Positions 9,419 through 46,106 of a stretch of 46,106 nt of DNA are shown here, piece by piece. The translations under genes and the position numbers were made by a program. Every line of letters begins with the position of its first letter. The stretch's first letter is position 1. Location of the stretch: IMG/VR virus record IMGVR_UViG_2939127364_000005. One strand, given 5' to 3'. The notes beneath the pieces are model-generated. The model did not search any database, had not been told where the DNA came from, and saw only the letters and a list, made by a program, of their open reading frames with translations. The DNA comes from a virus (taxonomy: Duplodnaviria; Heunggongvirae; Uroviricota; Caudoviricetes).

Positions 9419-9477
9419 TCCTCACGCTCCATAAACGACAAAACCGCCCGGAGGCGGTTTCACATAAACGTTTTTCA

Positions 9478-10790: not shown

Positions 10791-10794
10791 GGGA

Positions 10795-14380: not shown

Positions 14381-14807
14381 ACCGGACTCCTCCTGCGATC
14401 CCTTCTGATACTGTCATCAGCATTACGTCATCCTCCGTCATGTCCGCCACATCCGGGGAAGTAGGGATAACTTCATTCCCGTCCGGGCCAAAGCGGACAC
14501 CTCCGGCAAGCCCTGCCGCTTTCTGCATCAGCACATCATCTTCAGGCTCTTCGTCAGCCTCACGCCGGTTCAGCAAACTGAAATCCAGCGGATGCATATC
14601 CGGATCGCTGAAAAACAGGCTGAGCACGGTGTACGTCAGCCCGGAAAAGTGCATATCCAGCAGAACATCATGAAAATAATGGGTACTGTAAAAGCGGTGC
14701 CAGTCGGCATACTCCGTGGATGACATCCCGGCAAGCATGGCACGCCAGTCGGGTCGCCCCATCTCTCGCGCCAGTTTCAGGGCAAAACTCAGCTCACCGT
14801 CGAACAC
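14373..14807 (-). CDS. T: T portion of the G-T tail assembly chaperone, expressed by -1 programmed frameshift from G
   Basis: ORF in the -1 frame overlapping the 3' end of G; slippery heptamer GGGAAAG (minus strand) at 14807-14813. Confidence 0.8.
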   Translation of the reverse strand: MFDGELSFALKLAREMGRPDWRAMLAGMSSTEYADWHRFYSTHYFHDVLLDMHFSGLTYTVLSLFFSDPDMHPLDFSLLNRREADEEPEDDVLMQKAAGLAGGVRFGPDGNEVIPTSPDVADMTEDDVMLMTVSEGIAGGVRYG

Positions 14808-15211
14808 TTTCCCGCAGAAACAGGCTCTGCAGGCCCGGCGTCCTCTGTCTGTTCAGGAGCATCATTCACCACAAACTCATACATACCGGACAGCCGGTAC
14901 ACCACGTTTTCAGCATGAGAAATTGCCTCCGTGGGCCAGGTGGTAAGCACTTCCTGCTCAATCTGTTTAACGGCTTCATTCATGGACGGCATCTGCGTCT
15001 TCTGCGGATGGTTATGCCACAGGGACATCGCCACCAGAAACGCGCCGGTTTTGATGGCGTCTTCCACAGTAAACTTCCGGTTGCTGTCTGACTCCGCCTG
15101 TTCTGCCTGCCGTTTCATCAGGGCGAGATGCTCAATACGCTGCAGGGCTGACAGTTCAGAAAGCGTGACGGTCACACCGTTATGTTCAAATGATTCGGTT
15201 TTCAGGAACAT
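14789..15211 (-). CDS. G: Tail assembly chaperone G (140 aa)
   Basis: MFLKTESFEHNGVTVTLSELSALQRIEHLALMKRQ... matches lambda G as recalled. Confidence 0.9.
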   Translation of the reverse strand: MFLKTESFEHNGVTVTLSELSALQRIEHLALMKRQAEQAESDSNRKFTVEDAIKTGAFLVAMSLWHNHPQKTQMPSMNEAVKQIEQEVLTTWPTEAISHAENVVYRLSGMYEFVVNDAPEQTEDAGPAEPVSAGKCSTVS

Positions 15212-15226
15212 CGCTGACTCTCCGGA

Positions 15227-15967
15227 TTAACTGGCGGTGACGTTGATTTCTGCAACCGCAGCAAACTCACCATTACCGGATACGACCGGAATGTTGACCT
15301 TGCCTGCAGCAACACCTTTCACGGTGATGGTCATACCACTGACCGACACGGTGGCTTTTGTTTTATCCGCAGACACCGCACGGAAGCTCTTGTCGGTTGC
15401 GCACTCCGGCTGGAATGCCACGGTCAGCGTGGTGCTCTGCCCTTTCACTACGGAAGCACTGGCGGGTGTCACCGTCATGCCGGTTGTCGCCGTCACCGTG
15501 CTGCGATCTTCTGCCATCGACGGACGTCCCACATTGGTGACTTTCACCGTGCGGGTGATCACTTCCTTCGCCGTCACCGCCTTACCGATACTGCTGACCC
15601 AGCCACGGAACACATCGACCGTGCCGTTCGGGAAGCGGATTTTATAGGCACGGGTATCGCCTTCATTAAACCACGCCAGCAGCGCCTGCTGCCCCTGCTC
15701 TCCGGGCATCCACGCCAGCGTGAAGCTGGTATCTCCGGCAGATTTCTGCCCCTGCCCGGTCGCAGTCCAGTCCGCATTTTCATCATCGAGATAGCTGTCG
15801 TCATAGGACTCAGCGGTCAGTTCGCCGGGCGTCAGGTCTTTAACTTTTGCCAGACGCGACCAGTCAACGTCTGAAAGCGGATTCGCATAAGGGTCACCGC
15901 TCCCCTTATAAACCAACAGGGTGGTCCCGGCACCTTTCACCGGCATTGTAGGATTTGGTACAGGCAT
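15227..15967 (-). CDS. V: Major tail protein V (246 aa from [10 protein letters not shown])
   Basis: Matches lambda V including the C-terminal Ig-like domain; start chosen by alignment to lambda. Confidence 0.9.
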
Positions 15968-15974
15968 AGCGTCC

Positions 15975-16370
15975 TCACATTTCATAGGTAATGACATACG
16001 TCAGATCGGCTGAACTCCACAGGCCCGCATCATCGTCGCGCCGGTAGTCATAGCCACTGGCCACCATACTGGTGATCAAATCTGACAGTGCCGGGATATC
16101 GCTCATCACCGGATAAATCCGGGACTCCATCCACGAATCCAGCTCTGAATCCGGCACCTGAGCAGGCAGGAAAACTTCAATATGCAGCTCCGCCTGCCAG
16201 GTATCGCTGTCCAGCTCTTCGCCCGTGTATTCAGCGCCGGTGAGATAAACGGCAATTGCCGGAAAATCCGCCTCATCAAAAACAGCGGGGCGACCATCAA
16301 AAAGCGTCGCCCCGGTGTCATGCTTCTCCAGTGCATCCAGTACGGCTGCACGGAGTTCAGTATGTTTCAT
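15975..16370 (-). CDS. U: Tail terminator protein U (131 aa)
   Basis: [22 protein letters not shown]... matches lambda U as recalled. Confidence 0.9.
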
Positions 16371-16945
16371 CGCTTTATTACCATTCTCAGTTGATGCTGC
16401 AGCGCATAGCCCAGCTCTTTCGGAAGACGTTCACGCCGTATCCGTTCAATATTCTGTTTAAACGCCGTGGTAAGCGGCACCGCCATCGGGATTTTCACCA
16501 CATCAATGGGGTAACGGTTTTTCCCGGCCACACGCTGCATGACATGCCACCGGCCATTTTTCAGTTGCTGAATAAACGCGCCGGGAATACGACGGTTTCC
16601 CACCACAAGCACGCTGCCGCCACCTTTCAGGGATGAACGCTGCCCCTTTTTACGACGTCTGCGGCGGGAAAGGACAACCCGCGCGTTACCCAGCTTGATT
16701 ACGGGCAAATCCCCCCGGTTAACCCTGATTCTGGCCTGCGGATTTTTGACCGTGGCCCTTTTCAGCCTGGCCCTTTCCTTTACCAGTTTCCGGCGTACCT
16801 TTGTCTCACGGGCAACCTGTGCCACCGACTGCGATATCGCGGATGAAGCAACGCGGTTAATGGCCATTGCGGCGGCACCGGGCACCGCCGTTCTGCTGAT
16901 ACGGCTGAGGTTTTCAACGGCCTGCTCAAGACCTTTTATGGCCAT
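16367..16945 (-). CDS. Z: Tail completion protein Z (192 aa)
   Basis: Matches lambda Z as recalled. Confidence 0.9.
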   Translation of the reverse strand: MAIKGLEQAVENLSRISRTAVPGAAAMAINRVASSAISQSVAQVARETKVRRKLVKERARLKRATVKNPQARIRVNRGDLPVIKLGNARVVLSRRRRRKKGQRSSLKGGGSVLVVGNRRIPGAFIQQLKNGRWHVMQRVAGKNRYPIDVVKIPMAVPLTTAFKQNIERIRRERLPKELGYALQHQLRMVIKR

Positions 16946-16956
16946 ACATCCCCCTT

Positions 16957-17310
16957 TCAGCGGCGACGGTTAACGGCAGGCGGTACGCCCCGCCCAAGCC
17001 AGAGATGACAGCTTCCGCCATCATCCGGCGAAATCCGGTCTATCCAGAAGTTTTCCTCACCGATGGTCAGCGTGTCGCCGCGCCGCAGCTGCCGCACATC
17101 ATCAGTCCGGACAAACAGGGACGGGCTGGAGCCTTCAACGCGCACCCCCTGTCCGGCATAGCTGATATTTTCAGGGTCATCAAAAACACCACGTATCACA
17201 GCACCGGACTGCTCACCGGATGTCATGGTGGCTGACGTTCCCATGTACCCGCGTATCGTTTCATCGGCGCGGGCAATGGCAGCATCGAACAGGTTATCGG
17301 AATCAGCCAC
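16957..17310 (-). CDS. FII: Head-tail joining protein FII (117 aa)
   Basis: MADSDNLFDAAIARADETIRGYMGTSA... matches lambda FII as recalled. Confidence 0.9.
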   Translation of the reverse strand: MADSDNLFDAAIARADETIRGYMGTSATMTSGEQSGAVIRGVFDDPENISYAGQGVRVEGSSPSLFVRTDDVRQLRRGDTLTIGEENFWIDRISPDDGGSCHLWLGRGVPPAVNRRR

Positions 17311-17321
17311 AGCGCCTCCCG

Positions 17322-17717
17322 TTATTGCATTCTGGCCAGGCCATGTTCTGTCATTTCGGCTGCCACACCGGCAGAGACACGAAACGCCGTTCCCGGCAGC
17401 ACAAATGCCACAGGTTCATCCCGCGTGGCGTGAAGTGCATCGGTATGCAGCGTCACCAGTGCCACAACCGTGACCAGAGCAGCCGTATCAGTCACGGTAT
17501 CCGTCTGTGCTGATACCACCTCATTTTCATGTCCGGTCAGCGCATTTTCCGGGCTGACAGACGTGTCCTGACCGGCTGCGTTATCCGTGTCATCAAGCTC
17601 CTCTTCCAGCTCTGCCACACGGAGCGCCAGTTCTTCTTTCGTTCCCGTCAAACTGACATCGCGGTTCAGTTGCTCACCCAGCTCCTGAAGACGGGCAATC
17701 AGTTCATCTTTCGTCAT
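17322..17717 (-). CDS. FI: DNA packaging protein FI (132 aa from MTKDELIARL)
   Basis: Matches lambda FI as recalled; start chosen by alignment. Confidence 0.85.
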   Translation of the reverse strand: MTKDELIARLQELGEQLNRDVSLTGTKEELALRVAELEEELDDTDNAAGQDTSVSPENALTGHENEVVSAQTDTVTDTAALVTVVALVTLHTDALHATRDEPVAFVLPGTAFRVSAGVAAEMTEHGLARMQ

Positions 17718-17758
17718 GGACTCCTCCACAGAGAGAAAATGGCCCCGAAGGGCCATGA

Positions 17759-18784
17759 TTACGCCAGTTGAACGGACACGAACTCATCAGGATCAGCCAG
17801 CAGCATCAGCGGTGCTGACTGAATCATGGTGAACTCACGCGCCGGATCGCCGGTGGTCACCCAGTTTTTCGGGTAACGGGCAGAGGCGTTAATGCCTTCG
17901 CGCTGTGCGTCCGCATCCTGAATGCAGCCATAGGTGCGCAGACCGCGAGCCTGAGTGTTCCCCAGCACCATCGTGTTGTCCGGCAGGAAGTTCTTTTTGA
18001 CGCCGTTCTCCACGTACTGTCCGGAATACACGACGATGGCCACATCGCCATACATTCCCTTATAGGACACCGCTTTGCCCAGGTCTTTTACCGCTGTCTC
18101 CAGCTCGGAATGAGAGCCGCGACGGGTATCCAGCTTCTCCCTGACGGCTTTGAAGGAACGGAACAGCGCCCAGCCTTTCGGGTCAAACACGATGATATTC
18201 ACCACGCCGCTGGCGTTCAGCGCGTAGGCTTCGATATCGTCGGTCGGGTCATACGTGGACTTGTCACGCTTGCTCCACTCCGTGACGCCAGACTGTGTGA
18301 TGTTATTCGCTTCACTGCGGCCCATATCCACCTCAACCGGATCGAAGGCTTCACCGGTCATGGTGTATTTGCCCTTGAGCACGGCAGAAACTGCCTGCAT
18401 CTCTTCGACCTGAGCAATGGCCAGCTCTTCGTCTCGCATGTTCTGCATGATGATGCGACGGCGGCGGTAAGCCGGGTCCGCCAGATTCTGTGGATCTTCA
18501 TCCGGCAGGCGACGCAGGGTCATCTGCGGATTCACCTCATGCTTGGGTTTGACATATCCCGGCGTAAATTCAGAGGTGGAGCCGCCACGGGAACGGATAA
18601 CCTCACCGGAAACAATCGGCGAAACGTACAGCGCCATGTTTACCAGTCCCGGAATTTGTGAGAGATAGACTTTCTCCGTAGTGAAGGGATAGCTCTCACG
18701 GAAAAAGAGACGCAGAAACAGCGGATCAAACTTAAATTTCTGCTCATTTGCCGCCAGCAGCTGGGCGGTTGTGTACATCGACAT
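17759..18784 (-). CDS. E: Major capsid protein E (341 aa from MSMYTTAQLL)
   Basis: Matches lambda E as recalled. Confidence 0.9.
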   Translation of the reverse strand: MSMYTTAQLLAANEQKFKFDPLFLRLFFRESYPFTTEKVYLSQIPGLVNMALYVSPIVSGEVIRSRGGSTSEFTPGYVKPKHEVNPQMTLRRLPDEDPQNLADPAYRRRRIIMQNMRDEELAIAQVEEMQAVSAVLKGKYTMTGEAFDPVEVDMGRSEANNITQSGVTEWSKRDKSTYDPTDDIEAYALNASGVVNIIVFDPKGWALFRSFKAVREKLDTRRGSHSELETAVKDLGKAVSYKGMYGDVAIVVYSGQYVENGVKKNFLPDNTMVLGNTQARGLRTYGCIQDADAQREGINASARYPKNWVTTGDPAREFTMIQSAPLMLLADPDEFVSVQLA

Positions 18785-18839
18785 AAAAAAATCCCGTAAA
18801 AAAAGCCGCACAGGCGGCCTTTAGTGATGAAGGGTCAGG

Positions 18840-19172
18840 TTAAACGATGCTGATTGCCGTTCCGGCAAACGCGGTCCGTTTTTTCGCCTCGTCGCTGGCA
18901 GCCTCCGGCCAGAGCACATCCTCATAACGGAACGTGCCGGACTTGTAGAACGTCAGCGTGGTGCTGGTCTGGTCAGCAGCAACAGCAAGAATGCCAACGG
19001 CAGCACCGTCGGTGGTGCCATCCCACGCAACCAGCTTACGGGTGGAGGTATTCGGCATCAACGGAGTCATTGCTGGCGTTTTCTTACTCAATCCGCCGGG
19101 CGCGGTTGCGGTATGAGCCGGGTCACTGTTGCCCAGCGGCTGGTAATGGGTAAAGGTTTCTTTGCTCGTCAT
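18840..19172 (-). CDS. D: Capsid decoration protein D (110 aa from [10 protein letters not shown])
   Basis: Matches lambda D as recalled. Confidence 0.9.
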
Positions 19173-19181
19173 AAACATCCC

Positions 19182-19577
19182 TTACACTGGTGTGTTCAGC
19201 AAATCGTTAACGGCATCAGATGCCGGGTTACCTGAAGCCAGCGGTGCCGGTGCCCCCTGCATCAGACGATCCAGCGCAGTGTCACTGCGCGCCTGTGCAC
19301 TCTGTGGTGCTGCGGCCAGAATGCGGCGGGCCGTTTCCACGGTCATACCGGGGGTTTCGGCCAGCACGCGTGCCTGTTCTTCGCGTCCGTGAGCCTCCTC
19401 ACAGTTGAGGATCCCCATAATGCGGCTGTTTTCTGCCGCAACCGCTGCGGTGATCTGCGCGTTCACGTCCGGCTGCGCCGCGCTGGCGTTTTCGCCCTCC
19501 GTCGCTGGCACCACGTCAGTAACGTCAGCCTGCGAAGCAGTGGCTGAAACAGTTGTTGATTGAGTCTCTTTGGTCAT
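19182..19577 (-). CDS. nu3: Scaffolding protein Nu3 (131 aa), in-frame internal start within the 3' part of C
   Basis: Internal Met MTKETQSTTVSATASQ... to the C stop gives 131 aa, as described for lambda Nu3. Confidence 0.7.
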   Translation of the reverse strand: MTKETQSTTVSATASQADVTDVVPATEGENASAAQPDVNAQITAAVAAENSRIMGILNCEEAHGREEQARVLAETPGMTVETARRILAAAPQSAQARSDTALDRLMQGAPAPLASGNPASDAVNDLLNTPV

Positions 19578-20481
19578 TCGCCCTCCTGAGAGACGGGATT
19601 TACGTGCATCCAGTGCATCACGCATAACGGTGATCGCATCGGTGCTGTTGACAAGTTCATCAGCCAGTCCGGCATCAATGGCCTCCTGACCGCTGTACAC
19701 TGCAGCCTCGGTATCCAGCACAGCCTGCACGGACAGGCCGGTATATGCCGACACCTTCTGCGCAAACATCCGGCGGGTTGCATCCATCCGGGACTGCAGT
19801 GTCTCCCGGACGTCATCCGGAAGATGGCTGTAGGGGTTGCCATCCACCTTATGGCTGCCGCTGTAAATCAGCGTGATTTCCACGCCCTGTTTCTCCAGCG
19901 CAGCACCGTAATTACTGTGAGCCATCATGACGCCGATGGAGCCTGTCCGGGCGGTCTGCGTGACCAGACGCCGGGAGGCGGCGCTGGCAAGCAGCTGACC
20001 TGCACTGCAGTTCATGTCGTTGGCCAGCGCCCATACCGGTTTTATGTCTCGCACACGGGCGATGATGTCAGCACAGTCAAATGCTCCCGCCACCATCCCG
20101 CCCGGTGTGTCCATATCGAGCAGAATGCCGTCCACCATCGGATCGCTGGCAGCCTGTTGCAGACGGGCGATAATGCCGTTGTAACCGGTCATTCCCGAAT
20201 ACGGCTGCAGCGCCCGCGTCCGGCTGACCAGCGTGCCGGACACCGGCAGCACGGCGATGCCGTTCATGACCTGATAACTGCGGGCCTGTCGTGGTCCGTC
20301 ATCATCACCGGATAATGCCAGCGTCGCGAGTGCCTCCTGGGCAGTCAGGCTGTCGCCGGACACCGCATCCGTCAGGCGGCTGATCCCAAGCTGGCCTGCA
20401 AGCGCACAAAAGAAAACCCGCGCATAGGCGGGTTCAAGCATCAGCGGCTCATTAAAGGCCATGCTGGCAATATGCGGGAGA

Positions 20482-20501
<20 letters not shown>
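19182..20501 (-). CDS. C: Capsid assembly protease C (439 aa, GTG start)
   Basis: (V)TAELRNLPHIASMAFNEPLMLEPAYARVFF... matches lambda C as recalled. Confidence 0.9.
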
Positions 20502-24182
<3,681 letters not shown>

Positions 24183-24208
<26 letters not shown>

Positions 24209-24728
24209 TCAGCAACCCCGGTATCAGTTCATCCAGCGCGGCTGCTTTGTTCATGGCTTTGATGATATCCCGTTTCAGGAAATCAACATGTCGGTTTTCC
24301 AGTTCCGGAAAACGCCGCTGCACCGACAGGGGGAGCCCGTCGAGAATACTGGCAATTTCACCTGCGATCCGCGACAACACGAAAGTACAGAATGCGGTTT
24401 CCACCACTTCAGCGGAGTCTCTGGCATTCTTCAGTTCCTGTGCGTCGGCCTGCGCACGCGTAAGTCGATGGCGTTCGTACTCAATAGTTCCTGGCTGGAG
24501 ATCTGCCTCGCTGGCCTGCCGCAGTTCTTCAACCTCCCGGCGCAGCTTTTCGTTCTCAATTTCAGCATCCCTTTCGGCATACCATTTTATGACGGCGGCA
24601 GAGTCATAAAGCACCTCATTACCCTTGCCACCGCCTCGCAGAACGGGCATTCCCTGTTCCTGCCAGTTCTGAATGGTACGGATACTCGCACCGAAAATGT
24701 CAGCCAGCTGCTTTTTGTTGACTTCCAT
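24183..24728 (-). CDS. nu1: Terminase small subunit Nu1 (181 aa)
   Basis: MEVNKKQLADIFGASIRTIQNWQEQGMPVLRGGGKGNEVLYDSAAV... matches lambda Nu1 as recalled. Confidence 0.9.
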
Positions 24729-24960
24729 TGTTCATTCCACGGACAAAAACAGAGAAAGGAAACGACAGAGGCCAAAAAGCCCGTTTTCAGCACCTGTCGT
24801 TTCCTTTCTTTTTAGGGGGGGTTTTAAATAAAAACATGAAGTTACGGCGAAGAAGAACGGAAACGCCTTAAGCCGGAAAATTTTCATAAATAGCGAAAAC
24901 CCGCGAGGTCGCCGCCCCGTAACCTGTCGGATCGCCGGAAAGGACCCGCAAAATGATAAT
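24729..24960. other. cos: cos site (cosB, cosN, cosQ region); the 12-nt cohesive-end sequence AGGTCGCCGCCC (complement of GGGCGGCGACCT) is at 24906-24917
   Basis: Sequence reads as the reverse complement of the lambda genome ends as recalled (CCGCGAGGTCGCCGCCCCGTAACCTGTCGGATCGCCGGAAAGGACCCGC). Confidence 0.85.
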
Positions 24961-25116: not shown

Positions 25117-25350
25117 ATGTCAACGAAGAACAGAACCCGCAGAACAACAACCCGCAACATCCGCTTTCCTAACCAAATGATTGAACAAATTAACATCGCT
25201 CTTGATCAAAAAGGGTCCGGGAATTTCTCAGCCTGGGTCATTGAAGCCTGCCGCCGGAGACTGTGCTCAGAAAAAAGAGTTTCTCCTGAAGCAAACAAAG
25301 AAAAGAGTGACATTACTGAATTGCTCAGAAAACAGGTCAGACCAGATTGA
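25117..25350 (+). CDS. Small DUF3950/YlcI-like protein (77 aa), conserved lambdoid right-end ORF
   Basis: MSTKNRTRRTTTRNIRFPNQMIEQINIAL...GSGNFSAWVIEACRRRL resembles E. coli YlcI and the lambda right-end ORF as recalled. Confidence 0.7.
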   Translation: MSTKNRTRRTTTRNIRFPNQMIEQINIALDQKGSGNFSAWVIEACRRRLCSEKRVSPEANKEKSDITELLRKQVRPD

Positions 25351-25407
25351 AGCAATTTAGATAATCGTGCAGACTACGCCCCCTCATATCACATGGAAGG
25401 TTTATCT

Positions 25408-25818
25408 ATGGATCAGGTAGTCATTTTTAAACAAATATTTGATAAAGTTCGAAACGATTTAAACTATCAATGGTTTTATTCTGAGCTAAAACGTCACAAT
25501 GTCTCACATTACATTTACTATTTAGCCACAGAGAATGTTCATATTGTATTAAAAAATGATAATACAGTGTTATTAAAGGGCCTAAAAAACATTGTGTCTG
25601 TCAAATTTTCAAAGGATAGGCATCTTATAGAAACGACCTCTAATAAGCTGAAATCCAGAGAGATCACATTTCAGGAATACAGAAGAAACCTTGCTAAAGC
25701 AGGAGTTTTTCGGTGGGTTACAAATATCCACGAACAAAAAAGATATTACTATACCTTTGATAATTCATTACTCTTTACTGAAAACATACAGAGCACATCA
25801 CAAATGTTTCCACACTAA
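25408..25818 (+). CDS. YbcV-like (DUF1398) protein, conserved lambdoid right-end ORF; start taken at MDQVVIF with a GGAAGG ribosome-binding site
   Basis: ...[30 protein letters not shown]...[15 protein letters not shown] matches YbcV and the lambda right-end ORF as recalled. Confidence 0.75.
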
Positions 25819-26118
25819 ACCATAACGTCCGGTTTCTTCCACCATCGCACCGGAAAAGCGACTATGAGGGTAACCCTGCGTCTGTCAGCACAGTAAAATC
25901 CGGTGTGCATCGTTTTTGATTATTCCCGCACACTCACGCAGAAGGAATTCCCCGTCGGGCTACGGTCATGGTTAATGCGGGAATACGGCGACGATACAGC
26001 GCATGATGTGTCAGGCTTGAATACCTTTATCCGTTAAAAGGGATATCAGTTAAGTTATCCCGTGCAGGGTATAAGCCATTATCAAGCCCCCCCGTAGATA
26101 GGCTTTGTAATGACATCT

Positions 26119-26643
26119 TCAATTAATCAGCAGTTCAGGCTGTGTCACCTGCAAGATGTATTCATGCTCGACAGCCAGGACACGCTTCTCTTTCTTCCGT
26201 TCGTTCATTAACCGACTGCCGATCGTACCTTTCAGCTTTGAGCGTGTTTCTTTGATGGCGTAGCGGTGCTGCATTTCTTCGCCAATTGCCATGCGGCGGC
26301 TCAGTTGCTCTGCCATCCAGTTGAATGCTGCGATATAGCTCTCCTTGATTGCCGCAGCAGCTTTCCCGGTGAACCCCATCACAACCATGATCCAGCCATC
26401 TTTCGTCAGGCTGTACATCGGGCGAACCTTGCCCTGCTCATCGATATAATCAGCCGACGCAAAATTGCGTTGGCTAAACTCACGCGAGCAATCAGCCTTA
26501 ACCTGCTCGATTTTCCTGAGAACATCACCGTGTCGCTTGCCGAAGTACTTGGCAATTTTTCTGGATGTGGTAACGACCTCTCCGTTTTTGGCTTGCACCA
26601 TTTCTCGGAAGTCGAAGGCTGGAATAACTGAATGATTATTCAT
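26119..26643 (-). CDS. Rha-family phage regulatory protein (174 aa from MNNHSVIPAFDF; AAGG ribosome-binding site)
   Basis: N-terminal motif VVTTSRKIAKYFGKRHGDVLRKIEQ typical of the Phage_pRha domain; occupies the position where lambda has bor (on the opposite strand). Confidence 0.65.
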   Translation of the reverse strand: MNNHSVIPAFDFREMVQAKNGEVVTTSRKIAKYFGKRHGDVLRKIEQVKADCSREFSQRNFASADYIDEQGKVRPMYSLTKDGWIMVVMGFTGKAAAAIKESYIAAFNWMAEQLSRRMAIGEEMQHRYAIKETRSKLKGTIGSRLMNERKKEKRVLAVEHEYILQVTQPELLIN

Positions 26644-26985
26644 AGCGTCTTTACCTTTTAGAAAGTGAGCCTGTCTCACAGAAAAGCCGCCCGAGAGAGG
26701 TCGCCACCTATAACGGCATTTCTCAGGCTCGCTTACTGAAAGGCTCTCGTTAATATGCGCGTGAGATGCGCTGTGAAATTCAGATATAAAAAGCCCCGCG
26801 AATGCGAGGCTAAATCCTGGTATTTGTAATGAACTGGCTCTTATCTCAACGCAGCCCCTTACTGCGCGCCAGATGCTCAATATCAAGCATCAGCAATGAG
26901 ATGTTTAATCTGGATTTACTCCAGAAGTGATCACCACCCTGTCTACAGAGCCAGATGTGAAGGATGATGAGTAAAATTATCGCTA

Positions 26986-27468
26986 TCATCGAAGGCATTG
27001 CGTCCTAATGTATTCCTGAAGCGTTCTCAGTGCTGTTTGGTCGCGGATAATTCCGTCCCGGATATCGAGAACGTTTCGTCCAGCAACTGGAGAGAGTTCG
27101 ACGGTGGCATCATTGCCCATGCCGGAGGCGCTGGAGGTTTCGGCTGAGGATGGCACAGGGCATTTTCCTTTGACGAGCACCCTGCCACCATTATCAAGCT
27201 TCCGCAGAAGAGCATCATTTTCAGCTTTAGCATCAGCTAACTCCTTCGTGTATTTTGCATCGAGCGCAGCAACATCACGCTGACGCATCTGCATGTCAGT
27301 AATTGCCGCGTTCGCCAGCTTCAGTTCTCTGGCATTTTTGTCGCGCTGGGCTTTGTAGGTAATGGCGTTATCACGGTAATGATTAACAGCCCATGACAGG
27401 CAGACGATGATGCAGATAACCAGAGCATAAATAATCGCGGCGACTCTACTCACTGATCTATCCCCCAA
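26986..27468 (-). CDS. Rz: Spanin inner-membrane subunit Rz (i-spanin)
   Basis: N-terminal half (...[77 protein letters not shown]) matches lambda Rz as recalled; C-terminal half diverges. Confidence 0.85.
27027..27233 (-). CDS. Rz1: Spanin outer-membrane lipoprotein Rz1 (o-spanin), embedded in Rz in the +1 frame
   Basis: [21 protein letters not shown]... with lipobox (VAGC) and proline-rich segment [14 protein letters not shown]. Confidence 0.75.
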
Positions 27469-27983
27469 CAGGCTAATGCGCTTTCCTGGTCACGACGAAT
27501 AACCTGTCCATAGCAGTTATTTGAACGTATGCGGCAATCGCGCCCACCATCTTTTATCCACCAGCGAATCGCCTCGCATGCACCTTTACGATCACCGGCA
27601 TTCAGCCGCTTATAAAACGTCGACGGGAAACACTTACCGGGGCCAATGTTATAGGGACAAAATGACGCGATACCCGCTTTCTGTGGTTCGGTCAGTGGCA
27701 CTTTAATATTGCGCCCCACCCATGCCAGCGCCTTATCCCGTTCAATGGCGTTAACCTGGTCGCATTTTTCCTTCGACAGTTTCATACCGGGAACAACGGG
27801 TTTTCCATCCACCACCGTGGCACCCCGACAGATGGTCCAGATGCCGGAACCATCGCGGTATGCCGTTGTGTGGTTACCTTCTTTTTCATCCAGAAACTGG
27901 TCGAGAATATCAGGCGCAGGCGCACCGACGGCAATCAGTGCCAGAACGGCAGCCGACAGGCCGTATCTGATTTTTGCGTTCAT
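27450..27983 (-). CDS. R: Endolysin, GH24 lysozyme type with an N-terminal SAR-like (signal-anchor-release) segment; not the lambda R transglycosylase
   Basis: Weakly hydrophobic Gly/Ala-rich N-terminus ([18 protein letters not shown]) followed by a T4-lysozyme-like catalytic triad spacing E-x8-D-x5-T ([16 protein letters not shown]). Confidence 0.75.
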
Positions 27984-28088
27984 GGATATTTATCAGGATT
28001 TATCGGTTTCTGAACCCTGGATATGTTTATCTGTCCCGGCCTGTTGAATCAGGCAAGGAATAGTTAAATACAATAGAGAGGATTGTTT

Positions 28089-28361
28089 ATGGACAATAGC
28101 ACCATTTCTCTACAGGAGTTGCTCGACTGCATTTCCAGGCTTCGGGATGATGTAAATGCCCTTACTGTCGCATTTTCATATCTGGCATTCTCAATTCCCA
28201 AGGAACAAATGCAACCAACACTGGCATCGCTCCAGCTTGAATCACTCAACCCCAAATGGTCCCAGCAACAACAAAATTCTTTCAAGTGGCTGGCGGTATT
28301 ACTGGAAGAAAAATATGCTGGTGAAATTACCATTTCGGCGGAGTCTTCAGAGAACCAGTAA
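28089..28361 (+). CDS. Hypothetical 90-aa protein inside the lysis cassette, opposite orientation to the lysis genes
   Basis: Protein-like translation (MDNSTISLQELLDCISRLRDDVNALTVAFSYLAFSIPKEQ...); GAGAGGA ribosome-binding site about 7 nt upstream of the ATG; overlaps the 3' end of the next minus-strand ORF by about 35 bp. Confidence 0.4.
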   Translation: MDNSTISLQELLDCISRLRDDVNALTVAFSYLAFSIPKEQMQPTLASLQLESLNPKWSQQQQNSFKWLAVLLEEKYAGEITISAESSENQ

Positions 28362-28671
28362 TTCTTCCCGGTAGCTTTCCTTTGTAGGTTATCCACACAT
28401 TCTGCGCCTCTAAAATTATGGGGCGCTTTTCCGGCGACAGCTCATCCCCTTCACATAACCCGGCAGCAACATCCAGGAAGACCTGTCTGATGCTCCTTCT
28501 GGCTGCTGCCTCATAAAACTCCAGCGCGGCACCTTCAACACGGTCCAGCGAGATGTCCAGGTCAAAAATTTCACCGTCAAAGCGTTTTTTGTCCCGTAAC
28601 GCTAAAGTTACCGTAACTTTATTCTCAAAATTGCGGATCCCTTTCACAATCAGTTCATAGTTTTGAGTCAT
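28327..28671 (-). CDS. Hypothetical protein between holin and endolysin (114 aa), possibly YdfR/DUF1327-like
   Basis: No transmembrane segment; sits where E. coli Qin prophage has ydfR between essQ and rrrQ; family assignment by position only. Confidence 0.5.
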   Translation of the reverse strand: MTQNYELIVKGIRNFENKVTVTLALRDKKRFDGEIFDLDISLDRVEGAALEFYEAAARRSIRQVFLDVAAGLCEGDELSPEKRPIILEAQNVWITYKGKLPGRITGSLKTPPKW

Positions 28672-28675
28672 TGAA

Positions 28676-28891
28676 TTACTCTCCCCGTGCAGCCTTACGC
28701 TTGTCTTCTTTAATCTTGAAATAAAGATTTGTCAGATACGTCAGCAGGCCAAATACCAGGCTACCCAGCACACCTATTGCCGCCCACTGTGAGGGCGTGA
28801 CTTTATCGAGCAACTGTAAAAACCAGTATCCCGCACTACCCGCGGATGTTCCGTAGGCAATGCCAGTAGAGATTTTGTCCATTGATTTCAT
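28676..28891 (-). CDS. S: Phage-21-type class II holin (pinholin S21-like, 71 aa) with dual-start motif MKSM
   Basis: [71 protein letters not shown] closely resembles phage 21 S as recalled. Confidence 0.85.
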
Positions 28892-29009
28892 AGCAACGCC
28901 TCCGCAAGTAACGGATTGCGTAGTTCTTATATTGGGAAGGGGAAAAAAGAAGGCCGCAGCGTAACTATCACTGATGAATTCAGGACAGCCAGTGGCTCCG
29001 GCTCAGTTA

Positions 29010-29085
29010 TGGTGCTGGTTAACGGACTTGAACCGCTACCCATTCGCTTACAAGGCGACTGCTCTACCATTGGAGCTAAACCAGC
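29010..29085 (-). tRNA. tRNA gene (76 nt, CCA encoded); anticodon by manual folding is UGU (Thr)
   Basis: Manual cloverleaf: perfect 7-bp acceptor stem GCTGGTT/AACCAGC, D-arm GCTC-CAATGGTA-GAGC, T-loop TTCAAGT, anticodon loop CTTGTAA; one G-A mismatch at the top of the anticodon stem. Confidence 0.65.
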
Positions 29086-29090
29086 ATATT

Positions 29091-29165
29091 TGGCGGGACA
29101 GCGTGGACTCGAACCACGATAAGAAGGTTAACAGCCTTCCGTAATGACCTTTATGCGACTGACCC
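29091..29165 (-). tRNA. tRNA-like gene (75 nt, CCA encoded) with GUU (Asn) anticodon; may be functional or a pseudo-tRNA
   Basis: Anticodon arm GAAGG-CTGTTAA-CCTTC and T-arm CGTGG-TTCGAGT-CCACG are perfect and resemble E. coli tRNA-Asn loops; acceptor stem has one T-T mismatch and the D-stem pairs poorly. Confidence 0.5.
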
Positions 29166-29228
29166 AAACAAAAAAAGCCACCGTTGCAACTTAAGAGTCA
29201 CTAACGGCAGCTTACCTTCTAATTATGG

Positions 29229-29747
29229 CTAAATGGATAATTGCATGTCAAGGCTTTTAACAGCAACATGCTTAACTTTCTCAACACGTTTACGCATTTT
29301 GAAAGCATTTTGCATTGGCTGGTACAAAACAAATAACGACGCTTTCAGGATGTCGTCAATTTCGTTTCTACAGGTTGCCAGTGAAGGTTTTCTCCATCCC
29401 TCGCCACCACGTCCACACATCTTGCGTGGCTTTGCAGTCGCGTGATAGTAGGATGCAATTGCTCGCTTAGATGAACCATGAGCGTAGTAGCTGAGGAGGA
29501 TGCCAAAGGCTTTTTTGTCAATGCACATGACGGAATCGACGACCTGAGAAATCAACATTCCATCATCATCATTACACATTGGCCTTGTCATAACTCTTCC
29601 CGGCTCTACGCTCTCCATGAACTTAGCTATTACGCTGCTCATGCGCTTTTCCAGACGACCTGAATAAACCCATGCGCCCCACAGTTCAAGCCAGCCATTC
29701 AGCCACTCGTGCTGTTCTTTGGTGAGGTTTAGTTCTCTTATGCCCAT
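29229..29747 (-). CDS. Q: Late antiterminator Q, phage 82/21 (QuuD-like) family; 172 aa from the ATG at 29747 (ORF track begins at a GTG at 29804)
   Basis: Motifs WGAWV...CNDDDGMLISQ...LLSYYAHG resemble the E. coli QuuD / Phage_antitermQ family as recalled; lies between ninG and the lysis genes. Confidence 0.65.
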   Translation of the reverse strand: MGIRELNLTKEQHEWLNGWLELWGAWVYSGRLEKRMSSVIAKFMESVEPGRVMTRPMCNDDDGMLISQVVDSVMCIDKKAFGILLSYYAHGSSKRAIASYYHATAKPRKMCGRGGEGWRKPSLATCRNEIDDILKASLFVLYQPMQNAFKMRKRVEKVKHVAVKSLDMQLSI

Positions 29748-29790
29748 GCGCCTTCTCCCTTGTGATCTGGAATGGTTTTTACTGAGAACG

Positions 29791-30402
29791 TCATGCGGCC
29801 TCACTTCTGCTGTTTCGCAGGTCTTTGAGTTTCTGCTGATACTCCGCCTTGATGGCCCTGCACTCTTCGACAGTCCAGCGATGGCGGTTATGGTTTGATT
29901 CGATTTCGTCTACTGCTTCCTGCCCGATGCGGCTAATCAGTTCGACGCGATACGGAACGAGATTTCCGCTTTTGTGCTGGTTGCACACCACGCATTGCTT
30001 GTGAATATTGCGTTCATCAAATCGGAGTTGAGGTGCCGCAGCAGTTGTCCGGTAATGTCCGGCATCCCACTGAGCAGACGTGAGCGTTCCGCACGAGATA
30101 CATGGTAAGTCGCGGTCTCTTTCTCTGATGAAGGCGTTTACGGCTTGTTGGGCTTGTTTAATCCAGTAACTGCGGGGCTTTAAGGCGAGTTTTCGAATCT
30201 TAAGTTTATCTTTCTGTTTCTGCTCCTCTCGTCGTCGTTTCTTCTCTGCTGCTTTTTCCGCTTTTTCGCGTTCTTTACTTCGTCGTTCGAGTGCTATCTT
30301 GGTTCCACACTCTGGAGAGCACCACCACTGATTAGCGAATGCAGGATGAAACCATTCCCGACATTCTTCGTTTTTACATCGTCTTCGCGCTTGTTTAGCC
30401 AT
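29791..30402 (-). CDS. ninG: NinG / Rap recombination-promoting nuclease (203 aa)
   Basis: [44 protein letters not shown]... matches lambda NinG as recalled. Confidence 0.9.
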
Positions 30403-30671
30403 TATGGTTCGCTCCAGTAATTCTCAATTGCAGCAGCCATTCTCTGCATCCACTCAGCCAGCTTTAACGCGGCTTCTCTTTCAGAACCACATTTAGGGAA
30501 ATCCTTCATTTCCATGCTGGCCTTATATGTTCTGAATGCTAGGTCTCCGGTAATAACCAGCTCCTGATCAAGCACCGAGCGTTTATTCCGGTGTTGAACG
30601 TAATAGACAGATTCAGTCCGCATTTCTTCTCTGTCTTTTTTGAAGGAAATAAGCTCAGAGAAATCACTCAT
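30402..30671 (-). CDS. Hypothetical nin-region protein (89 aa)
   Basis: ORF tightly packed between ninF and ninG; I recognise no lambda counterpart. Confidence 0.5.
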
Positions 30672-30876
30672 CGTCTTCTTCCTCGTACATTGAGCTATTC
30701 GGATCGCTCATCAGTTCTGCGCAGCAGTGCTCACATACGTGAACTTCCAGCACATGCAGCTTCTGACCGCAGTTAGCGCACGTTAAAGCTCGCTCGACGC
30801 TTTCTTGTTCGTAACTTCGATTTGGGTCAATCACCTTGTATTCCTCGCACGATGTCTTAGCCACCGGATATCCCAC
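30664..30876 (-). CDS. ninF: NinF (start uncertain; the lambda-like part begins near ...[39 protein letters not shown])
   Basis: C-terminal 45 aa match lambda NinF as recalled. Confidence 0.75.
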
Positions 30877-31013
30877 AGGTGAGCCGTGTAATTGAAGGTT
30901 TTTACGTCAGATTCTTTTGGGATTGGCTTGCGTTTATTTCTGGAGCGTTTCGTTGGAAGGTATTTGCAGTTTTCGCAGATGATGTCGGTGAAACTTCGTC
31001 GCTGTCGCCTCAT
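30831..31013 (-). CDS. ninE: NinE (60 aa from [10 protein letters not shown])
   Basis: [51 protein letters not shown] matches lambda NinE as recalled. Confidence 0.85.
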
Positions 31014-31537
31014 GCCGCCCTCCTGACGCCCTGCCCGATCGCTATCAATGCCGCTTTGGATACGGTAGTAAACATCCGTCGAGGACTGATGAACGGTCGC
31101 CAAATCAGCAGCATGGAGCCTTTGCTGTTTCCCTTCTTCTCCAGCCCCGTCGATGGTTCGATAAAATTAATCCGTCCATCAGTGATAATGCGAACTTCGT
31201 CGACACTCTCCAGAGCCTTGCTGAACCATCCGACTGACATATCCTCTGGCACAAGCATCACTACCGTCTGTCGCTGTTGTATGCACTGCTCAGCGGCTTT
31301 TTCCACCCACGGCCTGATATTGCTGTACGGTGGGTTATTCCAGATTGCACCGTGGCTTACCCACTCAGAATTGAGCGCGTCGTCGGCCTCAGTTAGCCAG
31401 TGAGCACACAGAGCATTTTTGTCGCTCGCTGCCGAATCCAGCCAGAATCCAAACTCAATATCCAGTGCATCAAAAAGCCAAAGCGGCGTTTGCCAGCAGT
31501 CCTTGTCGTGTGCTGGCGTATTTGATTTGATAGTCAT
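31010..31537 (-). CDS. Phage-type DNA N6-adenine methyltransferase (about 175 aa); its ATG overlaps the ninB stop (ATGA)
   Basis: NPPY(S) catalytic motif of N6-adenine methyltransferases ([14 protein letters not shown]); occupies the slot where lambda has ninC/ninD. Confidence 0.7.
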
Positions 31538-34376: not shown

Positions 34377-34515
34377 TTATGCTGTTGTTTTTTTGTTACT
34401 CGGGAAGGGCTTTACCTCTTCCGCATAAACGCTTCCATCAGCGTTTATAGTTAAAAAAATCTTTCGGCCTGCATGAATGGCCTTGTTAATCGCGCTTTGA
34501 TATACGCCGAGATCT
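34377..34515 (-). pseudogene. cro: cro, C-terminal part (codons about 21-66), separated from its start and from PR by IS5
   Basis: ...[46 protein letters not shown] matches lambda Cro as recalled; upstream frame runs into IS5. Confidence 0.85.
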
Positions 34516-34519
34516 TTAG

Positions 34520-35714
<1,195 letters not shown>

Positions 35715-35718
35715 TTAG

Positions 35719-35873: not shown

Positions 35874-36590
<717 letters not shown>

Positions 36591-36708: not shown

Positions 36709-37614
36709 ATGCCAAATTTACCGATGGGCGGATCGCAGGGTGAATTACCCTTAGTACCTACAGTAGAAGTTGTTGCTGATGGCATTCCTATGGGGGTGCT
36801 TAATGATGGAACCCCTTATCTAACTCTTTACGGTTTAGCCAAATTATGTGGCATAGATGAAGCACCTCTTCGAATGTTTACATCTAACTGGGAGACTGAA
36901 AAAAATAAGCCAAGAGGACAAAAAGTAGCTGCATACTTAGCTGAGAAAGGATTTAACAACGTTGACCGACTGTATACCCGCGTCATAAATAGCTCAAACG
37001 TTGAAACACATGCTTATCCTGACTATGTTTGTATGGCTATCCTCCGTTACTACGCTCTAGATGCCACCAATTTTGATAGGTCAGTCGCAATAGGTAATTT
37101 TGTTCGCTTGGCTGAGTACACGCTTAAGCGAATGATTTATGAAAAGTCAAATTACAACCCAAATGCTTCAATAGATATCTCATTCGAGAACTATAGAGCA
37201 AGGATTAAGCTAAACGATCAGATACCGACAACTCATTTTGCAGTATTCAGAGAGATAGCTGACATTGCCATGAACCTGATCGGAGGAGGATTCCCAATGG
37301 ATGACACCACATCTTTGGATGGAAGTGTTGGAATTCACTGGGGAAAGTATTGGACAGCTAATGGGCTATCTGAGAAATTCGGGGAAAGGGTGCAGTACCC
37401 ACATCTATTCCCCGAAAATTACAGGCAGTCAGCTGCAAATAAGCATATAACAGCTTGGATTTATCCTATTGAGGCACTTGGCGTGTTCAGAAAATGGCTA
37501 CACGATAATTACGCAATGGAAAAACTGCCAAATTACCTTGGGAACAAAAAGATTAGTAATGCCTCCGAGCTATTAGAGTCGATAAAAAAACCAGCACTCC
37601 CAAATAAGCATTGA
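36709..37614 (+). CDS. Uncharacterised 301-aa protein at the rexAB position; N-terminal KilA-N/Bro-N-like motif, C-terminal half unassigned; candidate repressor-linked defence gene (possibly BstA-like)
   Basis: Directly downstream of cI on the same strand; motif GTPYLTLYGLAKLCGI resembles KilA-N/Bro-N DNA-binding domains; no similarity to RexA or RexB as recalled; followed by a strong terminator. Confidence 0.6.
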   Translation: MPNLPMGGSQGELPLVPTVEVVADGIPMGVLNDGTPYLTLYGLAKLCGIDEAPLRMFTSNWETEKNKPRGQKVAAYLAEKGFNNVDRLYTRVINSSNVETHAYPDYVCMAILRYYALDATNFDRSVAIGNFVRLAEYTLKRMIYEKSNYNPNASIDISFENYRARIKLNDQIPTTHFAVFREIADIAMNLIGGGFPMDDTTSLDGSVGIHWGKYWTANGLSEKFGERVQYPHLFPENYRQSAANKHITAWIYPIEALGVFRKWLHDNYAMEKLPNYLGNKKISNASELLESIKKPALPNKH

Positions 37615-38046: not shown

Positions 38047-38370
38047 ATGGATGCACAAACACGCCGCCGCGAACGTCGCGCAGAGAAACAGGCTCAATGG
38101 AAAGCAGCAAATCCCCTGTTGGTTGGGGTAAGCGCAAAACCAGTTAACCGCCCTATTCTCTCGCTGAATCGCAAACCGAAATCACGAGTAGAAAGCGCAC
38201 TAAATCCGATAGACCTTACAGTGCTGGCTGAATACCACAAACAGATTGAAAGCAACCTGCAACGTATTGAGCGCAAGAATCAGCGCACATGGTACAGCAA
38301 GCCTGGCGAACGCGGCATAACATGCAGTGGACGCCAGAAAATTAAGGGAAAATCGATTCCTCTTACCTAG
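38047..38370 (+). CDS. N: Antitermination protein N (107 aa from MDAQTRRRERRAEKQAQWKAAN)
   Basis: Matches lambda N including the arginine-rich boxB-binding motif. Confidence 0.9.
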   Translation: MDAQTRRRERRAEKQAQWKAANPLLVGVSAKPVNRPILSLNRKPKSRVESALNPIDLTVLAEYHKQIESNLQRIERKNQRTWYSKPGERGITCSGRQKIKGKSIPLT

Positions 38371-42792: not shown

Positions 42793-43011
42793 ATGGCAGA
42801 CATCATTGATTCAGCATCAGAAATTGAAGAATTACAGCGCAACACAGCAATAAAAATGCGCCGCCCGAACCACCAAGCTATATCTGCCACTCATTGTTGT
42901 GAGTGTGGCGATCCGATAGATGAACGAAGACGACTGGCCGTTCAGGGTTGTCGGACTTGTGCAAGTTGCCAGGAGGAGATCGAACTTAAGAACAAACAAT
43001 GGGGATTGTGA
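42793..43011 (+). CDS. TraR/DksA-family C4 zinc-finger protein (72 aa), at the position of lambda ea22
   Basis: CxxC-x17-CxxC arrangement (CECG...CASC) typical of TraR/DksA-type zinc fingers. Confidence 0.65.
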   Translation: MADIIDSASEIEELQRNTAIKMRRPNHQAISATHCCECGDPIDERRRLAVQGCRTCASCQEEIELKNKQWGL

Positions 43012-43057
43012 TGGCCTCAAAGCAGCAAATTTCAACATCACCAACTGAGGTGTAAAA

Positions 43058-43336
43058 ATGTTCAGAATCATTTTTCCTAACACCTGGTACGTCGACCACC
43101 ACGGCACTCCCTGCAAAATCCTGCGTTCTACCCACAACAAAGTTCACTACATCCGAAAAGGCAGAACATGTATCGCCAGCATGTTCCGCTTTAATCATGA
43201 CTTTGAACCTGTGAATAAAGCTGATGCAGATCGGATAGCAGAAGAGATCGAAACAGCAGAACACATTAAGAAGTTACGTGACATGCGTTCAAAAAGCAGA
43301 GGTAATCATGGAATCATACAGCCTCACACTCGATGA
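43058..43336 (+). CDS. Hypothetical protein (92 aa), at the position and of the size of lambda ea8.5
   Basis: Positional and length correspondence only; sequence not recognised. Confidence 0.45.
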   Translation: MFRIIFPNTWYVDHHGTPCKILRSTHNKVHYIRKGRTCIASMFRFNHDFEPVNKADADRIAEEIETAEHIKKLRDMRSKSRGNHGIIQPHTR

Positions 43337-43421
43337 GGCCTGTCAGTTTCTCAAGATATCCAGACCTACCATCGCCGCATCAATGCGGCTTTTTCTTGCG
43401 TGTAATTGCGGAGACTTTGCG

Positions 43422-43640
43422 ATGTACTTGACACTTCAGGAGTGGAACGCACGCCAGCGGCGCCCAAGAAGCCTTGAAACAGTTCGTCGATGGGTACGCG
43501 AGTGCAGGATATTCCCACCACCGATTAAGGACGGAAGAGAGTATTTGTTCCACGAATCAGCGGTAAAGGTTGACTTAAATCGACCAGTAACAGGTAGCCT
43601 TTTGAAGAGGATCAAAAATGGGAAGAAGGCGAAGTCATGA
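43422..43640 (+). CDS. xis: Excisionase Xis (72 aa from MYLTLQEWNARQRRPRSLETVRRW)
   Basis: Matches lambda Xis as recalled. Confidence 0.9.
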   Translation: MYLTLQEWNARQRRPRSLETVRRWVRECRIFPPPIKDGREYLFHESAVKVDLNRPVTGSLLKRIKNGKKAKS

Positions 43641-44688
43641 GCGCCGGGATTTACCCCCTAATCTTTATATAAGAAACAATGGATATTACTGCTACAGGGA
43701 CCCAAGGACGGGTAAAGAGTTTGGATTAGGTCGAGACAGGAGGATAGCAATCACTGAAGCTATACAGGCCAACATTGAGTTATTTTCAGGACACAAACAC
43801 AAGCCTCTGACAGCGAGAATCAACAGTGATAATTCTGTTACGTTACATTCATGGCTTGATCGCTACGAAAAAATCCTCGCCAGCAGAGGAATCAAGCAGA
43901 AGACACTCATAAATTACATGAGCAAAATTAAAGCAATAAGGAGGGGGCTGCCTGATGCTCCACTTGAAGACATCACCACAAAAGAAATTGCGGCAATGCT
44001 CAATGGATACATAGACGAGGGCAAGGCGGCGTCAGCCAAGTTAATCAGATCAACACTGAGCGATGCATTCCGAGAGGCAATAGCTGAAGGCCATATAACA
44101 ACAAACCCGGTCGCTGCCACTCGCGCAGCAAAATCAGAGGTAAGGAGATCAAGACTTACAGCTGATGAATACCTGAAAATTTATCAAGCAGCAGAATCAT
44201 CACCATGTTGGCTTAGACTTGCAATGGAATTGGCTGTTGTTACCGGGCAGCGAGTTGGTGATTTATGCGAAATGAAGTGGTCTGATATCGTAGATGGATA
44301 TCTTTATGTCGAGCAAAGCAAAACAGGCGTAAAAATTGCCATCCCAACAACATTGCATGTTGATGTTCTCGGGATATCAATGAAGGAAACACTTGATAAA
44401 TGCAAAAAGATTCTTGGCGGAGAAACCATAATTGCATCTACTCGTCGTGAACCGCTTTCATCCGGCACAGTATCAAGGTATTTTATGCGCGCACGAAAAG
44501 CATCAGGTCTTTCCTTCGAAGGGGATCCGCCTACCTTTCACGAGTTGCGCAGTTTGTCTGCAAGACTCTATGAGAAGCAGATAAGCGATAAGTTTGCTCA
44601 ACATCTTCTCGGGCATAAGTCGGACACCATGGCATCACAGTATCGTGATGACAGAGGCAGGGAGTGGGACAAAATTGAAATCAAATAA
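43618..44688 (+). CDS. int: Integrase Int (356 aa, tyrosine recombinase)
   Basis: MGRRRSHERRDLPPNLYIRNNGYYCYRDPRTGKEFGLGRDRRIAITEAIQ... matches lambda Int as recalled. Confidence 0.9.
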   Translation: MGRRRSHERRDLPPNLYIRNNGYYCYRDPRTGKEFGLGRDRRIAITEAIQANIELFSGHKHKPLTARINSDNSVTLHSWLDRYEKILASRGIKQKTLINYMSKIKAIRRGLPDAPLEDITTKEIAAMLNGYIDEGKAASAKLIRSTLSDAFREAIAEGHITTNPVAATRAAKSEVRRSRLTADEYLKIYQAAESSPCWLRLAMELAVVTGQRVGDLCEMKWSDIVDGYLYVEQSKTGVKIAIPTTLHVDVLGISMKETLDKCKKILGGETIIASTRREPLSSGTVSRYFMRARKASGLSFEGDPPTFHELRSLSARLYEKQISDKFAQHLLGHKSDTMASQYRDDRGREWDKIEIK

Positions 44689-44776
44689 TGATTTTATTTT
44701 GACTGATAGTGACCTGTTCGTTGCAACAAATTGATAAGCAATGCTTTTTTATAATGCCAACTTAGTATAAAAAAGC
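44689..44776. other. Prophage-host junction: lambda attP P' arm followed by the 15-bp att core (complement of GCTTTTTTATACTAA at 44762-44776), then host DNA
   Basis: Sequence is the reverse complement of the lambda P' arm and core as recalled; flanking gene is ybhC. Confidence 0.85.
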
Positions 44777-44822
44777 AGGCTTCAACGGATTCATTTTTCT
44801 ATTTCATAGCCCGGAGCAACCT

Positions 44823-46106
44823 GTGAACACATTTTCAGTTTCCCGTCTGGCGCTGGCATTGGCTTTTGGCGTGACGCTGACCGCCTGTAGCTCAACCCCG
44901 CCCGATCAACGTCCTTCTGATCAAACCGCGCCTGGTACCTCTTCTCGCCCGATTCTGTCGGCAAAAGAAGCGCAGAATTTCGATGCTCAACACTATTTTG
45001 CATCCCTGACACCAGGTGCTGCAGCGTGGAATCCTTCCCCGATTACCCTGCCTGCGCAACCTGACTTTGTTGTCGGCCCGGCGGGCACTCAAGGTGTAAC
45101 GCATACCACGATTCAGGCGGCGGTAGATGCGGCAATTATCAAGCGTACCAACAAGCGCCAGTATATTGCCGTGATGCCTGGTGAGTATCAGGGAACGGTA
45201 TATGTCCCTGCCGCTCCGGGTGGAATTACTCTGTACGGTACAGGTGAAAAACCGATTGATGTGAAGATTGGGCTTTCCCTTGATGGTGGCATGAGCCCTG
45301 CCGACTGGCGTCACGACGTCAACCCGCGCGGCAAATATATGCCAGGTAAACCAGCGTGGTATATGTACGATAGCTGCCAGAGCAAACGCAGCGACAGTAT
45401 CGGTGTTCTCTGCTCTGCGGTCTTCTGGTCACAAAACAATGGCCTGCAACTGCAAAATCTGACCATCGAAAACACGCTGGGCGATAGCGTAGATGCAGGT
45501 AACCATCCGGCGGTGGCACTGCGTACTGATGGTGACCAGGTACAGATTAACAACGTTAACATTCTCGGTCGTCAGAACACCTTCTTTGTCACCAACAGCG
45601 GTGTGCAGAACCGTCTGGAAACGAATCGTCAGCCGCGTACGCTGGTGACCAACAGCTACATTGAAGGGGATGTGGATATCGTTTCTGGTCGCGGCGCAGT
45701 GGTGTTCGATAACACCGAATTCCGCGTGGTGAACTCACGTACTCAGCAAGAAGCGTATGTGTTTGCACCGGCTACGCTGTCCAACATTTACTACGGTTTC
45801 CTCGCCGTAAACAGCCGTTTCAATGCTTTCGGTGATGGTGTGGCGCAACTGGGCCGCTCGCTGGATGTTGATGCCAATACCAACGGTCAGGTGGTGATCC
45901 GTGATAGCGCCATCAACGAAGGTTTTAACACGGCTAAACCGTGGGCCGATGCGGTGATCTCTAATCGTCCGTTTGCGGGTAATACCGGCAGCGTAGATGA
46001 TAACGACGAAATACAGCGCAATCTGAATGACACTAACTACAACCGCATGTGGGAATACAATAACCGCGGCGTGGGTAGTAAAGTGGTTGCAGAGGCGAAG
46101 AAGTAA
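44823..46106 (+). CDS. ybhC: Host gene: YbhC, pectinesterase-family outer-membrane lipoprotein (427 aa, GTG start, lipobox LTAC)
   Basis: Matches E. coli YbhC as recalled; ybhC flanks att-lambda in E. coli. Confidence 0.85.
   Translation: MNTFSVSRLALALAFGVTLTACSSTPPDQRPSDQTAPGTSSRPILSAKEAQNFDAQHYFASLTPGAAAWNPSPITLPAQPDFVVGPAGTQGVTHTTIQAAVDAAIIKRTNKRQYIAVMPGEYQGTVYVPAAPGGITLYGTGEKPIDVKIGLSLDGGMSPADWRHDVNPRGKYMPGKPAWYMYDSCQSKRSDSIGVLCSAVFWSQNNGLQLQNLTIENTLGDSVDAGNHPAVALRTDGDQVQINNVNILGRQNTFFVTNSGVQNRLETNRQPRTLVTNSYIEGDVDIVSGRGAVVFDNTEFRVVNSRTQQEAYVFAPATLSNIYYGFLAVNSRFNAFGDGVAQLGRSLDVDANTNGQVVIRDSAINEGFNTAKPWADAVISNRPFAGNTGSVDDNDEIQRNLNDTNYNRMWEYNNRGVGSKVVAEAKK

Follow-up and report, generated by a model that had tools for sequence, protein, structure and literature searches.

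The feature described here is already known: it is a textbook lambda attL, the product of the Int/IHF/Xis system. In E. coli K-12 MG1655, the core of the empty attachment site occupies positions 807328-807342, 46 bp upstream of ybhC (ybhC end, 807281) and 90 bp downstream of ybhB, with ybhC as the gal-side neighbour of attB. Leftward read-through from a prophage at this site towards gal is the classical 'escape synthesis'.

Lambdoid prophages at this site have also been linked to the gene dgcX, which is reported always to lie beside a lambdoid prophage and usually between ybhC and ybhB (PMC4287979, PMC10459773). Its product, DgcX, combines MASE4 and GGDEF domains, and an RxxD I-site precedes its GGEEF motif by 5 residues (PMC4287979, PMC10459773). 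Prophages carrying dgcX occupy attB in E. coli O104:H4, 55989, ETEC H10407 and E24377A (Richter et al. 2014, PMC4287979; PMC10459773). Here, we characterize a lambda-type junction near one end of a 46,106-nt stretch of DNA, hereafter the window, together with the prophage to which it belongs and the nearest relatives of that prophage.

Results

Phage and host sequences meet at the lambda core

The 15-bp common core O, GCTTTTTTATACTAA, which is the point of strand exchange, is matched exactly at 44762-44776 on the minus strand, and this is its only exact copy in the window. On the phage side of the core lies the P′ arm (44686-44761, minus strand). All 73 bp between the int stop codon and the core (44689-44761) are identical to lambda (J02459, 27739-27811), and identity runs on for 89 bp into int, giving 162 of 162 bp from the core into int without a mismatch to lambda 27739-27900. 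The arm includes exact matches to the lambda sequences of three putative arm-type Int sites, P′1 (44706-44715), P′2 (44696-44705) and P′3 (44686-44695), and of a putative IHF site, H′ (44724-44736). These names are taken from the established attP map and presumably apply here, given the identity to lambda. On the host side, the B arm of attB, a 46-bp leader upstream of ybhC (44777-44822, plus strand), matches MG1655 at 46 of 46 positions. It is followed by a complete ybhC gene of 427 codons with a GTG start (44823-46106, plus strand), the stop codon of which supplies the last base of the window. The encoded protein is identical to MG1655 YbhC (b0772) at 427/427 residues, with no mismatches in the DNA, and B arm and gene together (44777-46106) are 1330/1330 identical to E. 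coli K-12 MG1655. The 46-bp distance between core and ybhC is likewise equal in the two sequences.

The breakpoint could be located to a single position. In a megablast search against 50,697 phage records, the int/P′/core stretch was covered in 54 at 98.0-98.8% identity, and each of the matches listed breaks off at 44776 (lambda 27724), on the outer boundary of the core. Identity to the MG1655 host begins at 44777, directly past the core. In a four-way alignment with lambda attP, K-12 attB and the attR of a relative, the junction follows attB in its left half and attP in its right half, switching at the core. Every feature of lambda attL that was looked for was found: the core, the P′ arm, a B arm with the switch at the core, and adjacent int and xis. 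A first-pass annotation had proposed that the lambda P′ arm and 15-bp core adjoin host ybhC, and that this is the int-proximal junction of a prophage at the canonical lambda site. Both proposals are borne out, the first by the exact core flanked by 73/73 matching positions of P′ arm and 1330/1330 of host DNA, the second by a base-perfect attB/attP hybrid with lambda-type int and xis beside it.

To judge from its sequence, the junction at 44686-44822 is attL (B-O-P′), int-proximal and on the side of gal and ybhC, which is the arrangement of a classical lambda lysogen. We regard it as very nearly certain that it arose by integration of a lambda-like phage at E. coli attB between ybhC and ybhB. 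Site-specific recombination between phage attP and E. coli attB, mediated by Int and IHF and with a crossover within the overlap region of the 15-bp core, would yield such a product, leaving the host B arm and ybhC on one side and the P′ arm, int and xis on the other. By analogy with lambda, excision would require that Int, Xis, IHF and Fis act on attL and a distal attR.

Int and xis adjoin the junction

The attL junction and the adjoining int and xis genes look intact. Int (43618-44688, plus strand) encodes a lambda-type tyrosine integrase of 356 aa with Pfam Arm-DNA-bind_1 and Phage_integrase domains. It is identical to lambda Int at 351 of 356 residues and keeps the catalytic R212, K235, H308, R311, H333 and Y342. 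The excisionase gene xis (43422-43640, plus strand; Pfam Exc, E = 1.3e-39) overlaps the start of int, as in lambda, and its 72-aa product shares 69 residues with lambda Xis, the differences being V34I, G59S and R64K. Both genes are transcribed towards the attL junction.

A mosaic joint lies upstream of xis (42988-43424), where lambda homology is lost at 42988 and regained at 43374 (lambda 29126). An open reading frame starting at 43278 reads through into xis in the same frame, and the ~38 residues at its N terminus (MESYSLTLDEACQFLKISRPT...) resemble the start of another protein, one of AlpA/excisionase helix-turn-helix type, possibly a remnant; this fragment had neither a Pfam nor a PHROGs match.

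Across the junction, int is followed 134 bp downstream by the co-directional ybhC, and scans that stayed at chance level detected no terminator-like site between the two. Promoter and terminator scans of the attL junction and of the empty K-12 site returned nothing above shuffle expectation, and we therefore make no claim on ybhC regulation.

Junctions of this type are common. Of the 5426 complete E. coli genomes searched, 1889 (~35%) match a 901-bp int-attL-ybhC probe at ≥80% coverage, and in these RefSeq annotates the int-ybhC junction as "tyrosine-type recombinase/integrase | ybhC".

Relatives suggest an attR about 2 kb beyond the window

The opposite end of the window carries tail genes. 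A complete tail fibre assembly gene, tfa (1-585, minus strand; 194 aa; Pfam Caudo_TAP, E = 7e-44), encodes a protein ~95% identical to lambda orf-194, and the DNA is 93% identical to lambda 21824-22556. The first-pass description of a window that begins inside the prophage at tfa thus stands in substance and needs one adjustment, as base 1 belongs to the stop codon of a complete gene. Both ends of the window coincide with gene boundaries, the tfa stop codon at base 1 and the ybhC stop codon at 46106, and the window seems to have been cut at annotated gene coordinates and not randomly.

As the same annotation had stated, the other junction is not in the window. The core search returned no second att core besides 44762-44776 anywhere in the 46,106 nt. 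With up to two mismatches allowed, two matches were obtained in the window against 0.07 expected, a count reached in 0 of 100 shuffles. The additional match (6223-6237, two mismatches) was considered as a secondary att site and rejected as a chance resemblance within an IS3-family transposase ORF.

Relatives were reached through the side tail fibre protein Stf. Its ATG-start form (1119 aa) has an identical counterpart on 16 contigs, six of which were retrieved and examined. Exact-protein look-ups of the GTG-start form of Stf and of the IS-truncated fragment of J gave no match. Two of the relatives, L003 and L007, are 100% identical to window positions 1-5558 and 99.98% identical to 6817-15205, and lack only the insertion sequence (IS) in J. 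Past tfa, all six contigs have the same order: a 73-bp spacer, a 1332-bp gene of opposite orientation, a P arm and a second exact core. This core starts 2,045 bp past the tfa stop codon, with identical spacing in the six contigs and in strain AH01. Beyond it, the six contigs continue into the K-12 B′ arm (CTTGAGCGAAACGGGAAGG...), ybhB, bioA and bioBFCD-uvrB. Strain AH01 has the same succession of tfa, a GGDEF gene, P arm, core, B′ arm and ybhB, and an attR (P-O-B′) at ybhB/bioA was seen in every relative examined (L001-L007). The tfa-to-ybhB stretch comprising the GGDEF gene and attR recurs, at ≥80% coverage, in 587 of the complete E. coli genomes. The first-pass annotation had named the absence of a second core as the result that would speak against its reading; every relative examined has an exact second core, with ybhB and bioA beside it.

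These results support, indirectly, a prophage that goes on past the start of the window. The argument is threefold: no second core lies in the window, the window opens with tail-fibre genes 93% identical to those of lambda, and in the six Stf-identical contigs phage DNA extends ~2 kb further before a second core is reached. From the nearest relatives, attR would lie ~2.06 kb beyond base 1. If the source genome resembles them, the element would measure ~46.8 kb from core to core, or ~44.4 kb without its two insertion sequences. We give only a slight chance to a window start leading instead into a second, tandem prophage through a P-O-P′ junction, as in a polylysogen, or into a deleted right end, as the six contigs and AH01 all reach ybhB with the same 2,045-bp spacing and the stretch recurs in so many complete genomes.

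The P arm that the relatives carry at attR most resembles the P arms of HK106 and HK97 (93.6-97.1% identity over 15-20% of the query), with lambda at 88.9%. The HK97 record annotates the sib retroregulation site beneath this match; sib therefore remains at the distal end of the prophage, which is also its position in lambda.

A GGDEF gene occupies the short b region of the relatives

In the nearest relatives (L003, 13945-16004; L001, 9941-12000), the b region spans just 2,045 bp between tfa and the core of attR. It encodes a 443-aa MASE4-GGDEF diguanylate cyclase with RKED 5 residues before GGEEF. This gene region is absent from all 50,697 phage records. It lies within the att-bounded element and is therefore phage cargo and not flanking host DNA. 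The gene fits published dgcX, and we call it dgcX-like on the basis of that description.

Two insertion sequences interrupt cro and J

Two IS elements are inserted in the prophage. The first is a 1195-bp IS5 (34520-35714) with a 338-aa InsH ORF, 99.9% identical to K-12 IS5A and flanked by the target duplication TTAG (34516-34519 and 35715-35718). Its insertion breaks cro at lambda 38099-38105, some 20 codons into the gene, and creates a 70-aa hybrid ORF (34377-34589, minus strand). With cro split and cI (35877-36590) intact, the prophage is therefore cro-defective.

The second is a 1258-bp element with TG...CA ends (5559-6816), carrying orfA (5595-5942) and orfB (6062-6808) and flanked by the target duplication CTT (5556-5558 and 6817-6819). 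We refer to it as IS3-family because RefSeq so annotates a 99.9% identical copy in strain AH01; assignment to IS3 itself was rejected, as megablast gave no match to K-12 IS3A. The element cuts the tail-tip gene J into ORFs of 868 aa (6812-9418) and 311 aa (4675-5610). The site is empty in the IS-free relatives L003 and L007, where intact J encodes 1160 aa. The AH01 copy is also in J, at another position, and the two insertions are therefore independent.

Several properties would suit a fully functional, inducible prophage able to excise and give infectious phage: attL, int, xis and cI show no disruption and hardly differ from lambda, and the genes for head and tail share 97% identity with their lambda counterparts. 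Against this, cro and J are both IS-split, so that essential lytic genes are not intact. A functional prophage is accordingly a still slighter prospect than an aberrant right end. Instead, the prophage is crippled and would yield no infectious progeny.

The prophage body is a natural mosaic with lambda immunity

In total, 33,563 bp of the window are collinear with lambda in permuted prophage order (int ... cI ... cos ... J-stf-tfa). The 18 kb from J to Nu1 (6922-24917) are 97.3% identical to lambda, cos lies at 24917/24918, and the replication, immunity and recombination genes, xis and int follow. Where aligned, the prophage is ~97-98% identical to lambda, with ~12.5 kb of the window lacking a lambda alignment. 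Because of these gaps between lambda-aligned blocks, we consider the prophage a natural mosaic and not lambda itself. It belongs among the true relatives of lambda and has lambda immunity.

Other parts of the body diverge more strongly. Much of 25279-31534, which covers late regulation, lysis and nin, is unaligned to lambda or only ~80% identical. Immediately downstream of cI, an ORF of 301 aa (36709-37614, plus strand) takes the place of lambda rexA/rexB. Over its full length it matches PHROG 6287 (phrog_6287), 'BstA abortive infection system', with E = 5e-135, and it had no Pfam match. The 1119-aa Stf (585-3944, minus strand) aligns to lambda stf only in parts, at 78-88% identity; reconstructed lambda Stf has 774 aa. 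An Ala/Ser/Thr-rich stretch of low complexity at about residues 110-480 of Stf generates long spurious ORFs in other frames. When window segments 1-7200 and 21107-46106 were compared by megablast with 5,426 complete E. coli genomes, no full-length identical match was found; the best matches reached a coverage of 88% (97.7% identity) and of 80% (99.1% identity).

The host flank, 100% identical to K-12 MG1655 over 1330 bp, could point to a lambda lysogen made in the laboratory, or to engineered integration at att-lambda of the CRIM or DE3 type. The body does not: its lambda identity is limited to ~97-98%, ~12.5 kb are unaligned, and a BstA homologue stands where rexAB would be. Furthermore, int is intact here and is not in DE3, and near-identical tail regions occur in wild isolates and read-archive assemblies. 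A laboratory origin is therefore barely credible. Finally, the notion that the core match is a chance AT-rich 15-mer can be dismissed, given that none of 100 shuffles reached the observed count and that the flanks are base-perfect for 162 bp to lambda and for 1330 bp to K-12.

Discussion

The window can be placed firmly in an E. coli chromosome, at the classical lambda site and with a ybhC flank identical to that of K-12. One prophage boundary is thereby fixed to the base, a result useful for annotation only.

Beyond the attL assignment, a prophage immobilised by IS elements, with int, xis and attL intact, might be kept by its host for the cargo it carries, and leftward prophage transcription could enter ybhC. 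We consider this reading unlikely. Candidate cargo genes are the BstA homologue next to cI, lom and, beyond the window start, probably dgcX. Each element of this reading is individually known.

Among described systems, the dgcX-carrying lambdoid prophages share their layout with the relatives of the window, in which a MASE4+GGDEF gene lies between tfa and ybhB. They differ from the present case in that the gene is outside the window and its putative match to DgcX follows the published description. Phages 434, HK97, HK106, 2B8, HK629/HK630 and mEp332 are 98.0-98.8% identical to the window across int-xis-P′-core. Among the matches listed, 2B8, 434 and HK97 are the best over this stretch, slightly closer than lambda. 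All of these are free phage genomes with attP, whereas the window holds the integrated attL. The nearest counterpart is lambda attL in an E. coli K-12 lysogen, with which the junction shares the core, the 162-bp P′ identity, the B arm, the neighbouring genes and the 46-bp distance from core to ybhC. It differs from lambda by 5 of 356 residues in Int and 3 of 72 in Xis, and in that the attached prophage is a natural mosaic relative.
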